Assembly: GCA_964640225.1 (NCBI GenBank)
Contig: CAZXFI010000001.1
Span: forward strand, 119,321 to 183,320
Source: an uncultured archaeon
GTDB taxonomy: Archaea > Aenigmatarchaeota > Aenigmatarchaeia > PWEA01 > JAGHBM01
Reading direction: 5' to 3'
DNA: 64,000 bases
The position numbers and the translations under genes were made by a program. Numbering within the stretch: the first letter of the stretch is position 1; every line of letters starts with the position of its first letter. The notes under the pieces are model-generated. The model saw nothing but the letters and a program-made list of their open reading frames with translations, had not been told where the DNA came from and ran no database searches. Positions 976 to 63,804 of the stretch are shown here, in pieces.

Positions 976-2819
976 AAGTGCTCCCCTATTTTCTTTTTAA
1001 GCCTCTCCGCAACAAGGTTTCCGTCTATTTTTCCCCTTGCCTCGGCCATTACAGGCCCCATTAGCTTATTGAAAGATTTTAATCCTTCTTTTTTGATTAA
1101 TTCCTTGTCCAAAACCTTTTCTATTATTTTATCCAGTTCCTGCACGCTTAAAGACTTTACAGAGCCTAAAGATTTCTTCAAGCTTTTTCCGCTTGACATG
1201 CTCTCCAAAACGTCTGGAATTAACTCCTTTGGGATTTCATCCATCTCTTTGAACATATTTTTCAATTCTGAGTTTTTTATTTTTTCTGTGTTTGCTCCCC
1301 TTCGCTTTAAATCCTTAATAACGTTTAAAAGTATGTCTGCCGCCCTTGCATGGTTTATTTTCATTTCAGCAAGCTCTTCAAACAGCGGCAGGAAGCGGGA
1401 TTTTACCATTTGCCCTGCCAAATCCTGCGAAAGACCCATTTTCACGAACCTTTCTTTCCTTTCCTCAAGAGTTTCCGGTATTCGTATGCTGAGCATTTCT
1501 CCGGTAACGCGAATGGGCTTGACATCTGTCTCCGGGTACATCCTTGCCCTTCCCGGCAGGGGCCTCAGATAAGAGGTTGTGAGGTCCTGATTAGCCATTC
1601 TTGTCTCCTCCGGTACCCCTTCCAGGGTTTTCTCCGCCCTTTCCAGGACTGACATACAAGCTTTCTTTGCCCTTTCCTCTTCCTCTGCGATTATTCCTAC
1701 AACGTCTCTGTCAGTGCAGTCAAAACTCTTCCTGAGCTTCAGGAACTCCCTTGTAAGGTTGTATTTTCCTATATCCTCATCTGAATGGATGAAGCCGCGC
1801 ACCCCATATGGCTTCGCGTAATCGGAAAGCTCCCTACCGAAGGTTTTTTCCAGGCTTATGCTCCTCTTCAGAAGCCCCGCAAAACCCTTCAACTTAAAGG
1901 CAAAAACCTTTTTTTCCTCTTCAAGAAGCTTTGATATCATGGCGTTCCTGGTGTTGCCGAAAAGCAGCGTGACATCCAGTATCTCCTTGTCCACCATGGC
2001 TTGTCTCTCTGCCAGCTCGCTCCTTATTTCAATCAGGCCGGCCTGCCTCTCCACCTCGGCCTCTATGACCTTGTCCATGGTCCTCAGCTCCTGGAGGCCT
2101 TTAATCTCTATCCTTGCCCCATCCTTTATGGAGACGTTTACGTCCTGCCTTATGGTGCCTATTCCCCTCTTGACACTCCCTGTCGCTCTGAGAAGCATGC
2201 CTATTTTCTCCGCGGTCTCCTTTGCATGGGCCGGGCTCTTTATATCGGGCGCCGTGCCCACCTCAATAAGGGGGATGCCCAGCCTGTCAAGCCCGTAAAC
2301 CACCTTGTCGCCTTTTCTTTCAATTATCCTGGCGGCCTCTTCCTCAAGGCACACGTTTGTCACGCCGACCCTTCCCAAGGTCGTGTCCAGGAAACCGTCC
2401 ATGCCGACTACGGCAGTCCTCTGGAAACCGGAGGTATTGGAGCCGTCTATGACCGTTTTCCTCATGAAGTGGATTTCATCCGGTATGTCGCAGTTAAGCA
2501 TCCTGGCCATCTGTATGGCAATCCTGAAGGCCTCCGGATTCACGCCGTGAGGAGGCTCCTCGTCCCCTTCCACCAGGCAGCTCTCCCTGTCGTAAACGTT
2601 GTAAAGGAAAGACTTCTTCCTGAGAGACTCAAAGGCAGCGGCCCTGTCTATTTCCCCTGTTTCCCCGGCAACAGGCCTGAGCCGCCTTTCTATGCGAAAT
2701 ACAGGACTTTCATCCGTCATTCTTGAAATGCATTTGCAGAAAAGCTTCTTTGTATCCAACTGCTGGTGTATTTCAACCCCGGCCTTGAAGCCGAGTTTTT
2801 CAAAATTCAGACCTGTCAT
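972..2819 (-). CDS. gatE: Glutamyl-tRNA(Gln) amidotransferase subunit E
   Basis: 615 aa. N-terminus LGFKAGVEIHQQL is typical of GatE, and the C-terminus is GatB/YqeY-like. It lies next to gatD. Confidence 0.9.
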   Translation of the reverse strand: MTGLNFEKLGFKAGVEIHQQLDTKKLFCKCISRMTDESPVFRIERRLRPVAGETGEIDRAAAFESLRKKSFLYNVYDRESCLVEGDEEPPHGVNPEAFRIAIQMARMLNCDIPDEIHFMRKTVIDGSNTSGFQRTAVVGMDGFLDTTLGRVGVTNVCLEEEAARIIERKGDKVVYGLDRLGIPLIEVGTAPDIKSPAHAKETAEKIGMLLRATGSVKRGIGTIRQDVNVSIKDGARIEIKGLQELRTMDKVIEAEVERQAGLIEIRSELAERQAMVDKEILDVTLLFGNTRNAMISKLLEEEKKVFAFKLKGFAGLLKRSISLEKTFGRELSDYAKPYGVRGFIHSDEDIGKYNLTREFLKLRKSFDCTDRDVVGIIAEEEERAKKACMSVLERAEKTLEGVPEETRMANQDLTTSYLRPLPGRARMYPETDVKPIRVTGEMLSIRIPETLEERKERFVKMGLSQDLAGQMVKSRFLPLFEELAEMKINHARAADILLNVIKDLKRRGANTEKIKNSELKNMFKEMDEIPKELIPDVLESMSSGKSLKKSLGSVKSLSVQELDKIIEKVLDKELIKKEGLKSFNKLMGPVMAEARGKIDGNLVAERLKKKIGEHL

Positions 2820-4116
2820 TTATCTCTCCTCTCAAGTTCTCCCTTAAAAGCCTTTCCGCCTCCTCCCTTTTCTTGTAGTTGCCCAGAAGCCACGCAAGCT
2901 TTATGTAGGCTGTTTCTGCTGTCATATCTTCGCCCGGTATGACTCCCATCTCCTCAAGCTCCCTTCCCGTGGAATAAACGTTCATGTTTATCCTTCCGTT
3001 AAGGCACTGGGAAGTCATCACCACTATTCCTTTCTTCAAAAAAGCCTGAATTCCCTTGTAGAGCTCTTTGGGGACATGTCCTAGCCCGGTTCCCTCCAGA
3101 ACCAGGCCTTTATACCCTTCCTTTACAAAAAAGTTCATTATCTTGGCTTCCATGTCAGGATAAGCCTTTAAAAGAGCTACATTGTCCTCAAAATTGGATT
3201 TTACGTTTAACTTACGCGAAGCGTCTCTTTTTCTATAATCCTCCCTGAAAAACCTTATATTCCCCTCGGGAGACACCAGAGCCCACGGGGTAGAATTAAC
3301 GGACTTGAAAGCGTCCCTCCTGCTCGTGTGCATCTTCCTTGCCTTGCACGCGGGATATACAAGGCAAAAGTCATCGCTTTCCGTGGCATGCATGCACAAC
3401 CCGACTTCCCCGAAATCGGTTTCTGTCAGGAACCTTACCGCGCATATAAGGTTAAACGGGCCGTCGGAAGAGGCGCGGTCGCTGGACCTCTGTGAACCAA
3501 CGAGAACCACGGGCACGGGAAGCTCTTCCAACGCGAAAGCCAGGGCACAGGCCGTGTAATGGAGCGTGTCGGTGCCGTGGGTAACCAGGATGCCGTCGCA
3601 TCCGCTTTCCACCTCTTTCTGTATTTCCTTGGCGAGTTTCTTGTAATCGGAGAATTTCATGTTTTCCGAAAGGATGTTCTCCACCTGCCTTCCGTGAATG
3701 TTGGCCATCTCGGCGAGTTCCGGCACGGAATCCACCAAATCCTCCGCCGTGAAGCTTGGTATAACTCCTCCTGTCTTGTAATCCACTCTGGAGGCTATTG
3801 TTCCCCCCATTGAAAGAATAGAAATTTTTGGCTTGCTTTTATCGTGAACTTGGGGTTTAAAAGGTTTTTTAGGTTCTTTCATGCCCTTTGAAACAAGGGT
3901 GACCCCTACTTCCTTTGAATAAGCCATGCCCACGTTATATCCGTTATCAAGCTTTATAACCAAAGCGTTTCGGTCTCCCATGTCTATCCTTGGCATGAGC
4001 GTGCCTGAATAAACGTTATCTTCTTTTTTCACCTCTACACTATCGCCGATTTCTATTTTCTTCTTTTTCAGCATGTTTTGTATTTCCCTGGAGTACATAT
4101 CTGAAACCCTAATCAT
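2800..4116 (-). CDS. gatD: Glutamyl-tRNA(Gln) amidotransferase subunit D (asparaginase-like)
   Basis: 438 aa. Asparaginase motifs are present (SMGGTIAS, HGTDTL). The gene overlaps gatE by 20 nt. Confidence 0.9.
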   Translation of the reverse strand: MIRVSDMYSREIQNMLKKKKIEIGDSVEVKKEDNVYSGTLMPRIDMGDRNALVIKLDNGYNVGMAYSKEVGVTLVSKGMKEPKKPFKPQVHDKSKPKISILSMGGTIASRVDYKTGGVIPSFTAEDLVDSVPELAEMANIHGRQVENILSENMKFSDYKKLAKEIQKEVESGCDGILVTHGTDTLHYTACALAFALEELPVPVVLVGSQRSSDRASSDGPFNLICAVRFLTETDFGEVGLCMHATESDDFCLVYPACKARKMHTSRRDAFKSVNSTPWALVSPEGNIRFFREDYRKRDASRKLNVKSNFEDNVALLKAYPDMEAKIMNFFVKEGYKGLVLEGTGLGHVPKELYKGIQAFLKKGIVVMTSQCLNGRINMNVYSTGRELEEMGVIPGEDMTAETAYIKLAWLLGNYKKREEAERLLRENLRGEINDRSEF

Positions 4117-4138: not shown

Positions 4139-6814
4139 TTACGTGGTGGCCACACTGACCTTTGTTTTTTCTCCCGAGTATCCCTCGTTCTTTATGAAAA
4201 GGTCGTAGTATCCCCCGGCCCACCTCTCGTCGTTCACTATGTCTATTTTGTCAAAATTGAGTATTATGTTTATCACGTAGCTTATGGCCTCGTACGAGAA
4301 GGCGGGAAAAATCATGTCCCAGAAATCCCCGGAAGCTATGGAGTTTTCCTTTCCCTCCACGTTTGAGCACCCCTCCATACTGAAGGCAAGCAGGACGTCA
4401 TAAAGGGAGGTAATGCTGGCGTTGTAGGAATTGCCGTCCCGGCTATAATTTGAGTAAAGCGGCTCCTGGCCCGCGAAAACCCAGGCCACGAAAAGGTTGT
4501 TGTCCGAATCCTCGGTGCATACCCACCTGTCGCTCTGGTTCGCAAACGAATTACCGGAAAGCGCGAAGTCAAGCCCGTGAGCGGCGTGGTAAAGAACGTG
4601 GCTGCAGTTTACCGTGTAGCTCTCAACCAGAGGATTATGGGAGCCGTTGAGCTCTATCCTTACCTTGAGGTTTTTTCCGGGATTGGTGAATACATGCTCC
4701 TCGCTTTTGTTCACCTCCTCCCAGTCCGTGCCGTTATTTGCGGAGAGGTAGTATCTTATGCCCTGGCCTGTGTCGCTTGCCCATAGAGTAGCTTTTGCTA
4801 TGTTCTGGGTGGAAAAGGTACCGGAAACAGCGTAGCCAGGCCAATGCGTTTCCTCCTCCCCGATTGAATAGTCCGGGGGATTCCCGATTCCCTGCTCCCT
4901 GTAGGCGTCCCTGGAAACCTCTCCGTAGGAGGAGTTGCGGAAAAGGTACACGTAATAGGTTAGGTTCAACCCGGAAATGTCCGTGAAATGCCACCACTCG
5001 CTGATTCTGAAGCCGTTCCAGTTCTCATCCAGCATCCTGATTTTGTTGAAACTGCTCATCTGCGAGGTGTTGGGGAACATGACAGCAAAAGTGTTGTCCG
5101 AATTCATGTCCTCCTTGACGGCGTACCAGTAGCCCCCCAGTTCAGACTTCAGGTAATCCCTGCTGTAACCCGAGGGCAGGCCTGCCTGAGAAGCTCCGCA
5201 CACGTTGGTTATGAGATGGGTGGTGTTTTCAAATGCTATACAGTGGTATCCGTTGCTGGGCCAGTCTACCAGCATGTACCACGAAACATTCACGGAGGGC
5301 GAATCCGTGTCAAACTCGTCCCTTACCTTGTAGTAGGGTTTGTCGTCAAAGAAAATAAAATACCTCGTGTCGCTCACCGAGTCTCCCTCTATAACGCCGC
5401 TCCAGTTTGACTTTATTACCGTGGCCAAGGGCCCCTCGTCCGTTACCTCGTAGCTGTAGGTGGACTGGCCCATTGTGTAGTTGTCCTTTCCAGTGGGGTT
5501 GTTGTTGTAAAGTATGTTTGAGGTCTTGGGAGGCACGTCCTGCCCGTTTGTCACCGAAAGAATATCAGTCGCCTGTGATAAGGGATAACCCACATCCGCC
5601 GAGGTCCCGCCTCCCGTGTATTCAACGTAATAATCGCCTGTTATCTGAAAATAACCGGAGCCCGCGGCCAGGCCCGGAGAGTCTTCGGGATAACCGGGGT
5701 ACTGGGCATAGGAATTGTTGTAATAGACGTAATAGGTTTCCGTGGAGCCGTTTTCTATGCTTACCTCAAACAGCACCCTGGCTTCCTGGCACTTTTCCTG
5801 GTACACCTCCCCGAAAACCTGGGAAGGCATCTCGTTCCCCAGGGAATCCGTGACCCTTATCTCCCTGCTGCAGTTTTCCGCGGAATTCCCGAAATCCAGG
5901 GGCAAGTCCACGGTGTAGTTAGTGAGATTGGAATTCTGGCCGTTGGTTATGTTTATCTCCCTTCTCTTTCCCCAGCTGTAGTTCCACCAGTCAAGCACCA
6001 GGTTTCCGTCCTCTACCGTAGCGTTTACAAGCGTTTCAAAATCGGATTCCGAGTCTATCGGGTTGTAAATCACGGAATATGCCTGCTCGTTCAGGCTTAT
6101 GTCGGCCTTTACAAAGTCTGATTTTGCGCTTAAAACGTAGGTTATGCTGTAATTGAATCCGGAATCCAGCGTAAGGCTCACCTTTATTCTTCCCATGCCA
6201 AGGTGGCTTCCTGAATCCAGAAGTTCGGTGTAGCCCGTGCCTGAAGACGAGTTCTCCATATCCAGTATGCTTACCTGCGAGCCGTTGGGCGTTACGTTGA
6301 AACCGGAATCCTTTATCCACAGCTTTTTGATTAGTTTCCCCGTGTCAAGGCTTTCCGGGCTTGTGATGTTGCCTGTCTTGTTTACTGCAAAAAGCACGCG
6401 GGAGTTTTCCAGGACAAGCTCCTTCTTTCCGTCGCCCGTGACATCGGCCTCGTAAGCCCTCACGTCTGCTCCCGTGGATATCACAATGTCTCCCTCTCTT
6501 TTCCACATGCCTTTGGAAAAAAGCTCGTGCTCGCTTTCCATTTCATAAATCACCGAGTTGTCCGCCGAGGAAACCTTGTATTCCCCCTTGCCCACGGTTA
6601 TGCCTATTTTCCTGGAACTCCCGTTGCCCTCGTAAGAGACCTCTTTCACGGCGGAATTTATCCTGTGCATGGAATTTTTTGCCTCGGAAAAGCTTGAAAA
6701 TTCCTCTGTTTTTTCCAGGAGCGGGCTGCCAACTCTCAGAACCAGAGCTATTGAAGCCATGGAAACAGCGACAATCAGAATCAGGGACATCATGGGGCTT
6801 ATTCCTTTGCGCAT
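4139..6814 (-). CDS. Giant (891 aa) class-III-signal-peptide (prepilin-like) surface glycoprotein
   Basis: N-terminus MRKGISPMMSLILIVAVSMASIALV has a KG|I motif followed by a hydrophobic helix. The protein carries dozens of N-x-S/T sequons. It is the last gene of the pilus-like operon. Confidence 0.6.
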   Translation of the reverse strand: MRKGISPMMSLILIVAVSMASIALVLRVGSPLLEKTEEFSSFSEAKNSMHRINSAVKEVSYEGNGSSRKIGITVGKGEYKVSSADNSVIYEMESEHELFSKGMWKREGDIVISTGADVRAYEADVTGDGKKELVLENSRVLFAVNKTGNITSPESLDTGKLIKKLWIKDSGFNVTPNGSQVSILDMENSSSGTGYTELLDSGSHLGMGRIKVSLTLDSGFNYSITYVLSAKSDFVKADISLNEQAYSVIYNPIDSESDFETLVNATVEDGNLVLDWWNYSWGKRREINITNGQNSNLTNYTVDLPLDFGNSAENCSREIRVTDSLGNEMPSQVFGEVYQEKCQEARVLFEVSIENGSTETYYVYYNNSYAQYPGYPEDSPGLAAGSGYFQITGDYYVEYTGGGTSADVGYPLSQATDILSVTNGQDVPPKTSNILYNNNPTGKDNYTMGQSTYSYEVTDEGPLATVIKSNWSGVIEGDSVSDTRYFIFFDDKPYYKVRDEFDTDSPSVNVSWYMLVDWPSNGYHCIAFENTTHLITNVCGASQAGLPSGYSRDYLKSELGGYWYAVKEDMNSDNTFAVMFPNTSQMSSFNKIRMLDENWNGFRISEWWHFTDISGLNLTYYVYLFRNSSYGEVSRDAYREQGIGNPPDYSIGEEETHWPGYAVSGTFSTQNIAKATLWASDTGQGIRYYLSANNGTDWEEVNKSEEHVFTNPGKNLKVRIELNGSHNPLVESYTVNCSHVLYHAAHGLDFALSGNSFANQSDRWVCTEDSDNNLFVAWVFAGQEPLYSNYSRDGNSYNASITSLYDVLLAFSMEGCSNVEGKENSIASGDFWDMIFPAFSYEAISYVINIILNFDKIDIVNDERWAGGYYDLFIKNEGYSGEKTKVSVATT

Positions 6815-57834: not shown

Positions 57835-58212
57835 GCGGTGTGTTGGGTTAGCCCGTCTTCTGTAAGCCCATCACCATCCGAGATGGCTCACCTGAAGGCT
57901 TTTTGGCATTCGTCTGCGCCCCGGCGCTCGGCCGGTTTAGCGACCTACCCGCCTCTCTCTCATCATCAAGGCCTACTTGGTCTTGCACCACACGGGCCGG
58001 TCCGTTTCACCCGCCGCGCCAAACATCAATTAGTATCATCTTTTAACAGCGAAGCGGTACCGTTTCTGATACCGACCTGAGCATCTCTGCCCAGGAGCTT
58101 GCGCCCCCGTGATTCGTCGGTGGACGGAGCTTCCTCGGTTTTTAGAAAACCCCATGCTTTGAACAAAAGGTTTTCATCCGTATAACCGGTAGCCAATTCT
58201 CCAACACACCAA
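57835..58212 (-). ncRNA. rnpB: RNase P RNA (type A)
   Basis: The minus-strand transcript contains GGGUGAAACGG, GUGCAAGACCAAGUAGG (compare CCGGAGCAAGGCCAAAUAGGG), a J18/2-like ACAGAAGACGGGCUAACC, and GAGGAAGCUCCG in place of AGGAAAGUCCGG. P1 pairs 5' GGUGUGUUGG (58201-58210) with 3' CCAACACACC (57837-57846). There is a P3 hairpin GAAAACC...GGUUUUC. Confidence 0.6.
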
Positions 58213-58746: not shown

Positions 58747-59708
58747 GATTTAAACCGAAACCTCACGGTCCCGGTCCTTGAAACCTGGATACAGGAACCC
58801 CAAAAATGGCGGTTAGTACTCGTGGACTGAACTGGTCGCCGAAGCTTCCGGCTTACATCCCGAGCCTATCAAACCCGTCGTGTACGGGAACCTAGGTTGT
58901 CTCTTTTTGGGAGCCGCTTCGAGCTTAGATGCCTTCAGCTCTTATCGGCGTAGGGCGTAGCTACTCGGCAGTGCCCTGCCGGACAACCGATACACCAGAG
59001 GCCCCAGGAGGATGTTCCTTTCGTACTGATCCTCCTTTCCCCTCAGACAACCAACACTCCTAGTAGATATTGACCAAACTGGCTCACGCCGTTCTGAACC
59101 CAGCTAACGTACCTTTTTGATGAGTGAACACCTCTACCCTTGGCCGCTTCCAGAACCCCCTCCCGCTTTAAGCGGAAGATGATTTTTCGTAAACGTTTTG
59201 CACGTTTACCTGTGCAAAAGGTTTTGCTGCACAGCCAGGAGAAGGTGAGCCGACAACGATGTAACAACACGCGGCGTCAATAGGGGCTTTCGGCCGCTAC
59301 GATCCGGTTATCCCTGAGGTAGCTTTTCTGACATCCCTGAGCCTTAAATCGACCGACGCAACGCATTGCGTCAAGTTATCAATAAGCTTCAGGATTTCGC
59401 TAGGTCAGGCTTTCGCCTCTGAATCCCTCGATGTTCAGGATTCAGTCAAGCTAGCTTTTGCCCTTACACTCTATTTCGGATTTCTGACCCGAATGAGCTA
59501 ACCTTTGAGCGCCTTTGATACCATTTCAAAGGCGTACCGCCCCAGTCAAACTGTCCACCTGATGTTGTCCAGGTTTCCCTGTAAGCAATACGTTTTCGAA
59601 AGAGTAGTGTTACATTGGCGACTACACACAAACTTGCGTCTGTGCTTTAACGTCTCCTACTTACGCTATACAATCAAAACCATATCACAGCATCAAGCTA
59701 CAGTAAAG

Positions 59709-60372
59709 CTAACCGCTGAAAGAAAGAGCAATCCTCATCCTTTCTTTTGTAGTAAGATGAGGCGGACAATAACCAAGATTTTTGAAAAGCATAATTTTAG
59801 ACAAATGTTTTTCATTTAAAAAACCTATTTTTTCCATCCATTTATTCAACATTTCCTTGCCGTAAATCCTTATTCTATAGTCTCTGAAACCTCTTTGATA
59901 GGCTTCTTCGCTGGAAACTTTGAAGCCAAGGTAATTTAACTTTTTCAAGGCAAAATCATGGATTATTTCATTGCTTGTGAAGAATTCAATTCTTGGCTCA
60001 TTGTGAATTCCTTTTCTGTTTTTCTTAAAGGTGACCGTAAAATCAGCATCTGCCAGACCTCTTAAAAAGTGATTTCTTTTAGTTTTGATTTACTTCCTAC
60101 CGGCAAACCTAAACCGATTTTCCTTTCCACCGCATCTTTAGAATTCAAATGAACTACTATTGTGTTTTCGTTTTTTCTGAAATAGACACATGGGTCCCTT
60201 CTGTAAAGTTTCTTCAATATTTGAGGTACCAAAATTCCATAGAATTTTTTGTCATCAATTGAATGCCCAGAGTATATTACTCTGTACACATTGTTTTTCC
60301 TGTCCAATTGCAAGGATCCGTCTCCTAAATGGAGTCCCGTCTCGTACGCTAAAAGTTCTTTTTAATTTTCAT
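59709..60372 (-). pseudogene. Intron-encoded LAGLIDADG homing endonuclease, disrupted by two +/-1 frameshifts
   Basis: Frame A reads MKIKKNF*. Frame B reads KELLAYETGLHLGDGS(L)QLDRKNNVYRVIYSGHS...KLKEITF* and contains LAGLIDADG motif 1. Frame C reads ...NHFLRGLADADFTVTFKKNRKGIHNEP...LKKLNYLGF...EMLNKWMEKIGFL...SFSG* and contains motif 2. The frame switches fall in A/T homopolymers at about 60359-60366 and 60064-60090. Confidence 0.6.
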
Positions 60373-60394
60373 GGTTTTATTGTTCGTGAAGCGG
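59721..60394 (-). other. Archaeal rRNA intron in 23S domain IV (H69-H71 region, about E. coli 1950). Boundaries are approximate.
   Basis: An AT-rich block lies between exon sequence GGGACGAAAG (60395-60404, rc) and UCAGCGGUUAGCUUUACUGUAGC (rc of 59701-59720). Conserved 23S sequence resumes on both sides. Confidence 0.6.
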
Positions 60395-62745
60395 ACTTAT
60401 CTAACTTTCGTCCCGCAAGGCGAAAGGGAGAATATGTCCGCTGAACAATAAGCATGTCGTATCCTTCTTCCATCTACGGGGACTCTACTTCCCACTAGGA
60501 GTCTCAGGCCCATTCCCCTGAATAGCAAGTTCGCTGAACTCCAACTTGGGACAGCAGGGACCTCGTTAAGCCCTTCATGCAGGTCGACATTCAATCGACA
60601 AGGGATTGCGCGAGCCTTTCTTTCTTGGAAGAAAGAAACCCTCGGGAAAAAAAGAACCTTAAGTTAAACTCAAAAGTTTTTCTTTTCCACAAGTGCTTTT
60701 CTTTTTCTAAAAGAAAAGGCCTTTTACGCTACCTTAAGACGATCAGAGTTATCGCCGCCGTTTACCGGTGCTTAGCCCCGTTGAAACGAGGTTTAACATA
60801 CCGGCACTGGGCAGACCTCACCGGCTATACGCAAGATTTCTCTCTAGCAGCCGGCTATGTTTTTGTTAAACAGTCGGGCCCCCTTTGTCACTGCGACCTG
60901 CGCTTCCCAGTAAAGAGAGCGCAGGCATCCCTCCTACCAAGGATACGGGACTAGATTGCCGAATTCCCTAAGTTGGGTTGTTTCAACACCTTCGCCTTCT
61001 AAGCGAGAGTACCTGTGTCGGTTTTGAGTACGGACACCAAAGGATAGTTCAGCAGCCTTTTCTTGGGATCCAGGAATGAACCAAACTTCCCATACAGGAA
61101 GCCTTGTAAGGTTCGCCTCCTTCTATTCCTTACGAATTTCCGAAGGCTTCTCTTACTTGATGAGGCGACGGCCTCACTTGGCCTATCCCGAACCGTCAGC
61201 CGCTGATAGTGGCCTCTGGTGGCACAGGAATATTAACCTATTTCCCTTTCGCCAAGCTAGGTTAGCGCTTGGCTTAGGACCGGCTTACCCCCGGCTGATA
61301 ATCATGGCCGGGGAACCCTTACTCTTCCGGTGGTCGGGAATCTCACCCGACTTTGCTGCTACTAATAACAGGATATTCATTTCCATGCGGTCCACAGGAC
61401 CTTACAGCCCTGCTTCTGCCCTCACGGAACGCCTTCCTACTATCTTTCAATCCGGGGTATCGGTAGTTGACTTACTCCCGTCCATTTTCAGCGCCTTCAA
61501 CCTAGACGGGTGAGCTTTTACGCTTTCTTTGAAGGATGGCTGCTTCTAAGCCAACCTCCCCGCTGTTTATGGTTGGAGACAACCTTTGTGACTTAGTCAA
61601 CATTTGGGGACCTTAACCCCGGTCTGGGTTGTTCCCCTTTCGGATACAGAACTTAATCCATGCACCCGCACTCCGGCCTTCTACGGCGATGACAGATTAT
61701 GAGTTTGACAGCGAAGCTGGGGCTTTCGCCCCTTGACTCCCCAATCAGTGCTTTACCCTGTCATCTGCCTCAGGTCGGGCTGAACTGAGATTCATTTCGG
61801 AAGGAACCGGCTATCACCCAACTCGATTGGTTTTTCGCCCCTATACCCGGGTCACCCGAGCGCGTTGGAACAGCTCCGGTAACAGGCCTCCATCGGGGTT
61901 TCCCCCGACTTCACCTTACCCAGGAATAGATCGTCGGGCTTCCGGTCTTATCCCCATGACTTCCCGCACTTTCGTACGGCGCCCCTCCACAAGAGTGTGT
62001 GGGCTTGTTGCTTTCGCTGTGGCTACGGCATTACTGCCTTAACCTCGCCATGAAGATAAACTCCCTGTCTCGTTCTTCGAAACGAACAGCACGACACTAG
62101 TCCACCTCCCTCGTACTAATGCGTCACCGCATATTCCTTCGGGAGGGTTCCTTCCTTCCATGCCGTGCCTGACTGTAACCGACTAGATTCAAGCTCTTTT
62201 CAATCCCTGTTACGGGTTCTTTTCAGCTTTCTGTCACCATACTAGTTCGCTATCGGACTTTGGTAATATTTAGAGTTGGGAGTGGATACCTCCCACATTC
62301 CTGCCCCATATCCGAGGGACAGTACTCTCCTGCCTGGAAACTACCTTCCTGTTTTCTTTTACGGGACTTTCACCCTCTGCGGTGCTCCGTTCCAGGAGAC
62401 TTCAAATCGGCTGGTTAGGCATTACCAGACACCACATCTACCCTGCGTTTCCGCAGGGAATTCGGTTTGCTCTGTGCCGCTTTCGATCGCCTTTACTCAC
62501 GGCATCGCGGTTGCTTTCTTTTCCTCCGCCTACTAAGATGCTTCAATTCAGCGGGTTGTGCTTCCTAAAAAGGAATGTCTTCCGAAGAAGACGCGAAGTC
62601 GCATTGAGCAATCCCGGGTTCTACGGCTGCATGCACCTCGCCCGGGCTTATCGTAGCTTGCCACGACCTTCTTCCTTACCAAAGCCAAGCTATCCCCTAG
62701 CCGGCTTATGCGAATGGTGTTCCTGACTCCAGTTGGTCAGGCCTG

Positions 62746-63688: not shown

Positions 63689-63804
63689 GGGCCGGTAGAT
63701 CAGTGGAAGATCGCCTGCTTTGCAATACGAAATAAGAATTTCGATGTTTCGTTTCGTAACGAAACAGCAGGAGGCCATGGGTTCAAATCCCATCCGGTCC
63801 ACCA
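63689..63804 (+). tRNA. tRNA-Ala(UGC) with a 41-nt canonical-position intron (63725-63765). The 3' CCA is encoded.
   Basis: Acceptor stem GGGCCGG/CCGGUCC includes the G3:U70 alanine identity pair. D-arm GAUC AGUGGAA GAUC. Anticodon stem CCUGC/GCAGG with loop UUUGCA|intron|A. T-arm AUGGG UUCAAAU CCCAU. The discriminator is A, followed by CCA. Confidence 0.8.

Follow-up and report, generated by a model that had tools for sequence, protein, structure and literature searches.

Locus and related introns

The 64,000-nucleotide (nt) stretch of contig CAZXFI010000001.1 analyzed here (the window, throughout) contains an archaeal 23S ribosomal RNA (rRNA) gene on its minus strand, recognized by the Rfam model LSU_rRNA_archaea (RF02540) with 2393.5 bits over model positions 1-2987. 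The gene extends over 3929 nt against 2987 model positions, and two insertions of 763 and 118 nt interrupt it. The larger one has a GC content of 35.6% against 51.8% in the exons and carries the remains of a LAGLIDADG homing endonuclease gene. We interpret it as an archaeal bulge-helix-bulge (BHB) intron whose endonuclease was recently inactivated. The coordinates of all features are collected in Table 1.

A protein-family scan of species-representative genomes yielded 62 loci. Thirteen other loci, including one Logan contig, have an intron at exactly the same position as the window; they are assigned to Aenigmatarchaeota, a Micrarchaeota contig (MNVE01000016.1), Bathyarchaeia and a Freyarchaeota bin. 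For L004, L006 and L032 the 5' positions derived from BLAST were discarded, as they belonged to a neighboring intron about 20 nt upstream, and the junctions were re-derived.

Table 1. Features of the window and of related loci (relatives' positions in their own contigs). ORF, open reading frame; MFE, minimum free energy
Feature	Position	Strand	Basis or remark
23S rRNA gene, intron host	58793..62721	-	Rfam RF02540
Archaeal BHB intron, 763 nt	59711..60473	-	Rfam exon alignments, 13 other loci, MFE fold
Outer helix, 5' strand AGUAGAGU, exon 1	60482..60489	-	pairs with 59709-59702, RNAfold
Unpaired CC opposite 3' bulge	60481-60480	-	RNAfold
Central 4-bp helix, 5' strand CCGU, exon 1	60476..60479	-	14-sequence pairing
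5' bulge AGA with 5' splice site	60473..60475	-	RNAfold, 14-locus alignment
Inner helix, 5' strand UGGAAGAAGGA, intron, 11 bp	60462..60472	-	covariation
Leader hairpin upstream of endonuclease ATG, 66 nt	60382..60447	-	covariance model R1, 80.2 bits, E 6e-18
Remnant A: ATG + 7 codons, stop (MKIKKNF, then stop)	60349..60372	-	translation
Scar of 28-nt deletion, removing about residues 5-14 of the intact protein	60360..60361	-	alignment with L001, L005
Remnant B: 99 open codons, motif 1, TAA stop	60062..60361	-	translation, protein alignment A1
Scar of 31-nt deletion, single AAATC copy retained	60071..60075	-	DNA and protein alignment
Remnant C: 126 open codons, motif 2, UAG stop	59709..60089	-	translation
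Inner helix, 3' strand UCUUUCUUUCA, inside last ORF codons	59717..59727	-	RNAfold, covariation
Central helix, 3' strand GCGG	59713..59716	-	RNAfold, covariation
3' bulge UUA with 3' splice site	59710..59712	-	RNAfold
Outer helix, 3' strand GCUUUACU, exon 2	59702..59709	-	RNAfold
Second insert, 118 nt, ORF-less	60606..60723	-	interrupts ...GGUAGCGUAA/UCCCUUG
Archaeal RNase P RNA gene	57838..58209	-	directly downstream of 23S, same strand
Transfer RNA (tRNA), anticodon-loop insert of about 43 nt	63689..63801	+	Rfam 58.7 bits
Relatives' other endonuclease introns	L005:3896-4663, 4937-5896; L001:31-590; L004:~1991-2854		
Leader hairpin copies in relatives	L001:893-958; L002:259-325, 1502-1568; L003:2894-2956, 4261-4337		
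Leader hairpin copies in relatives	L004:1991-2058, 2871-2947; L005:2891-2956, 4967-5044, 4573-4638(-)		
Leader hairpin copies in relatives	L006, L029 (two copies), L032, L047, L038, L031, L026, L060		

Intron boundaries and splice motif

Sub-range alignments of the 23S gene against the Rfam consensus break off and resume at ...CCCCGUAG(A) and (A)GCUUUACUG, which places the cuts at 60474/60473 on the 5' side and at 59711/59710 on the 3' side. Exon 1 ends at 60474 as ...GAGUCCCCGUAG (or ...GUCCCCGUAG, or ...GGGAAGUAGAGUCCCCGUAGA), in agreement with the consensus (...GAAGACCCcgUGGAgCUUUACuG or ...GgAGcGAAGACCCcgUGGAgCUUUACuG), and exon 2 begins as (A)GCUUUACUGUAGC at 59710/59709. Since each cut is followed by an A, both could be shifted by a single base. 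Removal of the intron restores the conserved mature 23S sequence, and the intron-free sequence CCCCGUGGAGCUCUGC is present in L032. Numbering the E. coli sequence GGAAAGACCCCGUGAACCUUUAC by what we take to be the anchors A2058, G2061-C2063 and m7G2069, the insertion would lie between G2070 and A2071 in domain V, presumably on the strand just 3' of the nucleotides of the peptidyl-transferase central loop. Our literature search, whose coverage is incomplete, did not turn up any paper in which an archaeal intron at position 2070/2071 of the large subunit (LSU) rRNA is named; many introns of this sort are plainly present in public genomes, and we do not claim the site as unreported.

These boundaries modify the preliminary description of this DNA, which had proposed an AT-rich insertion of about 675 nt at 60395-59709. 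The insertion is real, lies on the minus strand and is visible against an archaeal 23S reference, be it the Rfam consensus or the relatives; its extent is the 763 nt of 60473-59711. The 5' boundary proposed at 60395 is 78 nt too far in by the consensus alignment, and the sequence taken as 5' exon, GGGACGAAAG (60414-60405), lies 60 nt inside the intron, at the tip of an intron hairpin. The placement in the H69-H71 region of domain IV gives way, by our own numbering, to domain V at about E. coli 2070/2071. Finally, a TTAG at both junctions had been thought to prevent the exact placement of the cut sites by eye. This was an artefact of the wrong 5' boundary; the ambiguity is absent, and the BHB can be fixed apart from the one base mentioned above.

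The folding of the junction region that the same description had suggested does reveal a BHB. In an unconstrained RNAfold prediction of the whole intron with 60 nt of exon on each side, the MFE structure holds a 3-4-3 BHB at the junctions. Comparison with the relatives supports it: in an in-register alignment of 14 junction pairs (the window and the 13 same-site loci), 95.7% of the cells are paired, against at most 57% when the partners are slid. The central helix is paired in 100% of the cases, with a change from U-G to U-A in four of the sequences, and compensatory double changes occur in seven of the eight inner-helix pairs tested. The observed covariation score was reached in none of 500 shuffles. 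If both strands are cut behind the second nucleotide of the bulge, or just as well behind the third, the result is ...CCCCGUAGAGCUUUAC..., the conserved mature sequence.

The endonuclease gene: family and fold

As the preliminary description noted, both LAGLIDADG motifs are encoded on the minus strand, with the coding sequence spread over three frames. Motif 1, LAYETGLHLGDGS, is found at 60352-60314 and motif 2, FLRGLADADF, at 60068-60039. The frame opened by the ATG ends after 7 codons, the motifs lie in two further frames, and neither motif is preceded by a start codon in its own frame in the window copy. When the frame is repaired at both breaks a product of 221 amino acids (aa) results, for which a large protein collection contains 33 homologues, most of them intact and of 213-270 aa; the best one (245 aa) shares 75% identity over 98% of the length. 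Only the frame-repaired translation reaches the Pfam family LAGLIDADG_3, by a narrow margin (23.6 bits against a cut-off of 22.5). The motif cores read GLHLGDG and GLADADF, and D18/D27 and D111/D130 occupy invariant columns (alignments A1 and A4), so by its alignment the repaired protein is a two-motif LAGLIDADG protein that retains the predicted catalytic acidic residues.

Among PDB sequences no chain similar to the repaired protein was found (the only match, with an E value of 0.69, is irrelevant); the link to I-DmoI needed a structure model. An AlphaFold (AF2) model was made from a 30-sequence alignment for P0001, the closest intact homologue, and not for the window copy. This model has a predicted local distance difference test (pLDDT) score of 94.3 and consists of two repeats of one helix and four strands. 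Its best PDB matches with Foldseek are I-Tsp061I (2dch), PI-PfuI and many I-DmoI chains, with E values of 7e-11 to 2dch and 3e-9 to I-DmoI, target-normalised template modelling (TM) scores of 0.70-0.76 and an identity of about 19%. As modeled, intact P0001 has the pseudo-dimeric alpha-beta-beta-alpha-beta-beta-alpha fold. The earlier suggestion of an I-DmoI-like enzyme is borne out for fold and architecture, but not at the level of sequence.

Three side observations concern the end of the endonuclease frame. Its UAG stop straddles the 3' splice site, and the frame crosses the 3' strand of the splice motif (59709-59727). In L001 a difference of 1 nt lets the frame read on into exon 2. If the intron were circularised, the frame would enter the leader and end at the UAA within AGAUAAG.

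Two deletions broke the frame recently

The DNA of the window intron was aligned with that of the two closest introns, L001 (a Logan contig) and L005 (CP070662.1, the 832,879-bp chromosome of 'archaeon isolate bin779'). Against these intact relatives, which are about 80% identical, the window presents two clean gaps: one of 28 nt between direct repeats TAAAA, and one of 31 nt between direct repeats AAATC. Each length is a multiple of three plus one base. About 10 residues are absent at each break, namely NFQINNLKEE at the N-terminal one and PSWIKGNLVN (residues 111-120 of P0001, including the invariant P111) at the second one, just before the second LAGLIDADG helix. An open frame of 227-251 aa is present in all 13 of the other same-site introns, against at most 126 aa in the window. 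The lesions suggest slipped-strand deletion between the short direct repeats as their mechanism. The frame switches had been located in A/T homopolymers, and the positions (about 60360 and about 60070) hold; what changed there is not the length of a homopolymer, the two deletions being responsible instead. Likewise, the first codons (MKIKKNF) are indeed out of frame with motif 1, in a third frame, and only part of them is the original N-terminus. The relatives start with MKIKNF, and we rejected MKIKKNF as the full original N-terminus since its final NF is ELLA (GAACTTTTAGCG) read out of frame after the deletion.

The sequence around the lesions is reproducible. The Logan assembly of run SRR7048225 (contig SRR7048225_13178) matches positions 59651-60550 of the window exactly and shows 2 mismatches in 10,758 nt overall. 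This contig was reached through two other genes of the window, whereas the PGK product, as translated from the window, retrieved no copy. In a Pfam scan of eight large neighboring ORFs seven were matched, and GatE, ArgRS and glycogen synthase cover most or all of their Pfam profiles. The deletions, the independent assembly and the Pfam-matching neighbors bear out the view that the endonuclease is decaying. Judged by its reading frames, the window copy is a pseudogene of a single-chain, two-motif LAGLIDADG family, dead by standard decoding.

Regarding the age of this inactivation, the Nei-Gojobori ratio of nonsynonymous to synonymous substitutions (dN/dS) of the window copy is 0.139 against L001 and 0.097 against L005; the two intact copies, L001 and L005, give 0.088 when compared with each other. 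The 99 + 126 remaining codons contain no stop, while composition-matched shuffles contained 18.4 stops on average and never reached zero in 20,000 trials. The low dN/dS together with the stop-free remaining codons indicates that the gene was under purifying selection for nearly all of the divergence and that its inactivation is recent.

A hairpin ahead of the endonuclease genes

The 100-nt leader of the intron holds an irregular hairpin upstream of the ATG, whose tip contains GGGACGAAAG. Across copies the hairpin measures 66-80 nt, with invariant AUAUUCU and AGAUAAG and with stems that covary in the consensus fold. Permissive Rfam searches of the intron and of its 5' part found no family matching it, their hits being the LSU model itself and chance matches, and a reading as K-turn or loop E was rejected by eye because the required G-A/A-G positions are absent. 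The covariance model detects 20 sense-strand copies in the window and 14 loci, six of which lie outside the set used to build the model. The ATG follows exactly 8 nt past the end of the model in 13 of the 20 copies, and the ORFs after the hairpin start with MKIKNF or a similar sequence even where the LAGLIDADG protein is otherwise unrelated. At five or more different 23S sites the hairpin fronts LAGLIDADG genes that clearly differ in sequence, its copies are nearly identical within one genome, and L005 has one copy on the strand antisense to the rRNA, ahead of an endonuclease ORF that is antisense too. In the window, the 28-nt deletion clips the 3' edge of the hairpin-ATG-MKIKNF module.

By this distribution the hairpin behaves as an element that would move together with the endonuclease gene and not with the intron, and it suggests that the leader module may have been swapped among introns independently of intron and enzyme body. 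We put forward only tentatively, as a possibility somewhat less probable than its opposite, that hairpin, fixed-distance ATG and MKIKNF form an undescribed expression module of DPANN homing endonucleases. As for its role, our guess would be a structured 5' leader and/or a promoter resembling a B recognition element (BRE) and TATA box, for a near-leaderless mRNA.

Additional features of the 23S gene and its host

In relatives, one 23S gene can hold as many as three or four introns with endonuclease genes, at sites that are empty in the window, and one of these sites lies only about 20 nt upstream of the window intron's. In L005, ORF 4564-3911 is an endonuclease gene in the orientation opposite to the rRNA strand.

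The second insertion of the window 23S gene is located at what we take to be E. coli positions 1936-1938 or thereabouts, in domain IV, the region that the earlier reading had named for the large intron. It is absent from all 63 related loci, L001 and L005 included, and folds as a long hairpin with a relaxed BHB. Runs of A leave its boundaries uncertain by as much as 2 nt. It is probably a remnant mini-intron.

We also found unusual bases in the exon upstream of the large intron (60480-60490), which reads GUAGAGUCCCC in the window, L001 (846-856) and L005, that is, in three independent assemblies, while other archaea, including 11 related loci, have GAGAAGACCCC. In our own E. coli numbering this presumably gives A2058, G2059 and U2062 in place of G, A and A. 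Nucleotides of the peptidyl-transferase center and tunnel entrance are normally very conserved, and such a change is unusual. The change also lengthens the outer helix of the precursor splice motif to 8 bp.

The 64,000 nt contain neither a 16S nor a 5S gene, so the rRNA genes appear to be unlinked. The tRNA gene on the plus strand, about 3 kb from the intron, was missed by ARAGORN; its loop reads CUUUGC, and it is probably a tRNA-Ala(UGC). With an intron-bearing tRNA, we infer that the host must have a splicing endonuclease and a ligase. The window ArgRS has 100% identity to a protein of a 220-kb NCBI contig that also occurs in Logan, is 82% identical to that of CP070662.1 and 64-66% identical to proteins named Candidatus Aenigmarchaeota, and the 23S exons share 84-96% identity with those of CP070662.1, with one divergent segment at 74%. 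On these identities, the host is a DPANN archaeon near Aenigmatarchaeota.

Discussion

Our analysis describes, with a probability of about 0.9, a 763-nt archaeal BHB intron in domain V of the 23S rRNA of a DPANN archaeon related to Aenigmatarchaeota, with a recently inactivated LAGLIDADG gene inside it. At the junctions, two 3-nt bulges lie on opposite strands with a 4-bp helix between them and helices on either side, which is the structure of a BHB, with the caveat that the 3' bulge faces two unpaired C and so forms a 3x2 internal loop that the outer helix does not flank directly. This caveat speaks against our interpretation, as does the outer helix of only 3-4 bp in most relatives; due to both, the 3' side of the motif is slightly relaxed. 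A further weak point is that the E. coli numbering and the helix assignment behind the domain V position are our own.

In the proposed sequence of events, CCGU of exon 1 in the precursor would pair with GCGG at the end of the intron, and the start of the intron would pair just upstream of GCGG, a pairing that would present each splice site in a 3-nt bulge. The tRNA-splicing endonuclease, EndA, would cut both bulges, and an RNA ligase would join the exons into ...CCCCGUAGAGCUUUAC..., with the predicted junction (slash) ...CCCCGUAG/AGCUUUACUG, i.e. GUAG/AGCUUUAC. The enzyme of the intact relatives presumably cuts intron-less 23S rDNA (GAGTCCCCGTAGAGCTTTACTGTAGC), into which the intron would then be copied. 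In the window two deletions between short direct repeats, presumably slipped-strand events, have frameshifted the gene, and since its translation ends after 7 codons the intron would be immobile while still competent for splicing. The window intron may in this way represent a late stage of the life cycle of a homing endonuclease.

Several other explanations have to be weighed. The one that survives best, at a low probability nonetheless, is that the insert is cut out without ligation of the flanks, leaving a fragmented 23S rRNA, or is retained as an expansion segment. Fragmented rRNAs occur in other lineages, which counts in its favor. However, the strand that holds the site is universally conserved and adjoins what we take to be G2061-C2063, and an AT-rich insert of 763 nt is hard to square with function there. 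Besides, the structure is the one that the splicing endonuclease takes as its substrate, and what this enzyme cuts is normally ligated; the exons also show perfect sequence conservation across the junction.

Less credible still, and refuted as it was stated, is that the gene is intact and that homopolymer errors of sequencing or assembly break its frame, a possibility that the preliminary description had kept beside that of decay. The breaks do fall in A/T-rich runs, and one added base repairs each of them. Nevertheless, what the window lacks with respect to L001 and L005 is 28 and 31 nt and not one base, so that about 10 residues are gone per site, P111 among them, and neither the independent assembly nor the remaining long genes in the window, which match all or the greater part of their Pfam profiles, point to a faulty sequence. 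Equally improbable is the expression of the gene through two programmed -1 frameshifts, at A-AAA-AAG near 60360 and U-UUU-UAA at 60068-60062, which would give a 221-aa enzyme without about 20 residues. Both breaks need a -1 shift and lie on slippery-looking runs, the second one directly ahead of a stop; in addition, both catalytic Asp are kept, no other lesion is found and dN/dS is low. On the other hand, none of the 13 relatives uses frameshifting, the second deletion takes away both the IPxWI linker, which is conserved, and the turn that opens the second LAGLIDADG helix, and neither a stimulatory structure nor a precedent for such frameshifting was found. A recent inactivation explains the low dN/dS and the open frames equally well.

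The weakest explanation, a self-splicing group I (or II) intron, draws on the LAGLIDADG-bearing group I introns found in DPANN 23S genes, sometimes beside BHB introns (Nawrocki, Jones and Eddy, 2018; PMC6125680), and has no support here: no Rfam group I/II family (RF00028 etc.) matched at E<=10 on 59700-60480, nor at gathering score in the whole window; the general Rfam covariance models detected no ribozyme core (P3-P8); the non-coding RNA, some 100 nt at the 5' end with next to none at the 3' end, is too little for such a core; and the junctions form a covarying BHB at a site that is not among the group I sites listed in that study.

LAGLIDADG genes in introns of archaeal rRNA have been on record since the 1980s-90s. 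Like the introns of the Desulfurococcus mobilis 23S (I-DmoI) and the Thermoproteus 16S (I-Tsp061I) genes, the window intron has a BHB at its junctions, most of its length taken up by a single-chain two-motif LAGLIDADG gene, and an insertion site in a highly conserved stretch of rRNA. The modeled family member shares its fold with these enzymes (2dch and I-DmoI chains) but no sequence similarity to any solved LAGLIDADG protein is detectable, the structural identity being about 19%, and the window intron differs from the crenarchaeal ones by its site (about 2070/2071, domain V), by its mesophilic-looking DPANN host and by the inactivation of its gene. A mixture of group I and BHB introns was described in DPANN rRNA genes by Nawrocki, Jones and Eddy (2018; PMC6125680), who catalogued group I introns at LSU 1923, 1931, 2500 and 2593; the portions of that article available to us give no coordinates for its BHB introns. 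Those introns and the one reported here occur in the same lineages (Aenigmarchaeota, Micrarchaeota, Woesearchaeota), with several introns per 23S gene and many with LAGLIDADG genes, and the related locus L012 is itself a contig of that study, MNVE01000016.1. In contrast to the group I introns of the catalogue, the window intron has no ribozyme core and occupies another site.

In Thermoproteales 16S genes, endonuclease-encoding introns, remnants and short hairpin introns all keep their BHB (Jay and Inskeep, 2015; PMC4496867). The window 23S gene resembles these categories in having a freshly inactivated 763-nt intron together with the 118-nt ORF-less one. In contrast to the remnants of that study, the window lesions are exactly readable (28 and 31 nt) and the rest of the gene is undamaged; they can be read so precisely because intact sister copies about 80% identical exist. 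This kind of intron is known, and the window intron adds a member at a mapped site.

As an intron it is ordinary, the rRNA genes of DPANN being already known to be intron-rich. In practical terms, the 763-nt and 118-nt inserts need to be removed before phylogenies or structure models are built from this 23S sequence, and the true boundary differs from the intuitive one. The leader hairpin is the sole element here that may lead to something new. In addition, the window offers a snapshot of a homing endonuclease gene just after its inactivation, useful for the study of the cycle of gain, decay and loss, and the family marks a homing site, occupied in several archaeal phyla, beside the peptidyl-transferase loop.

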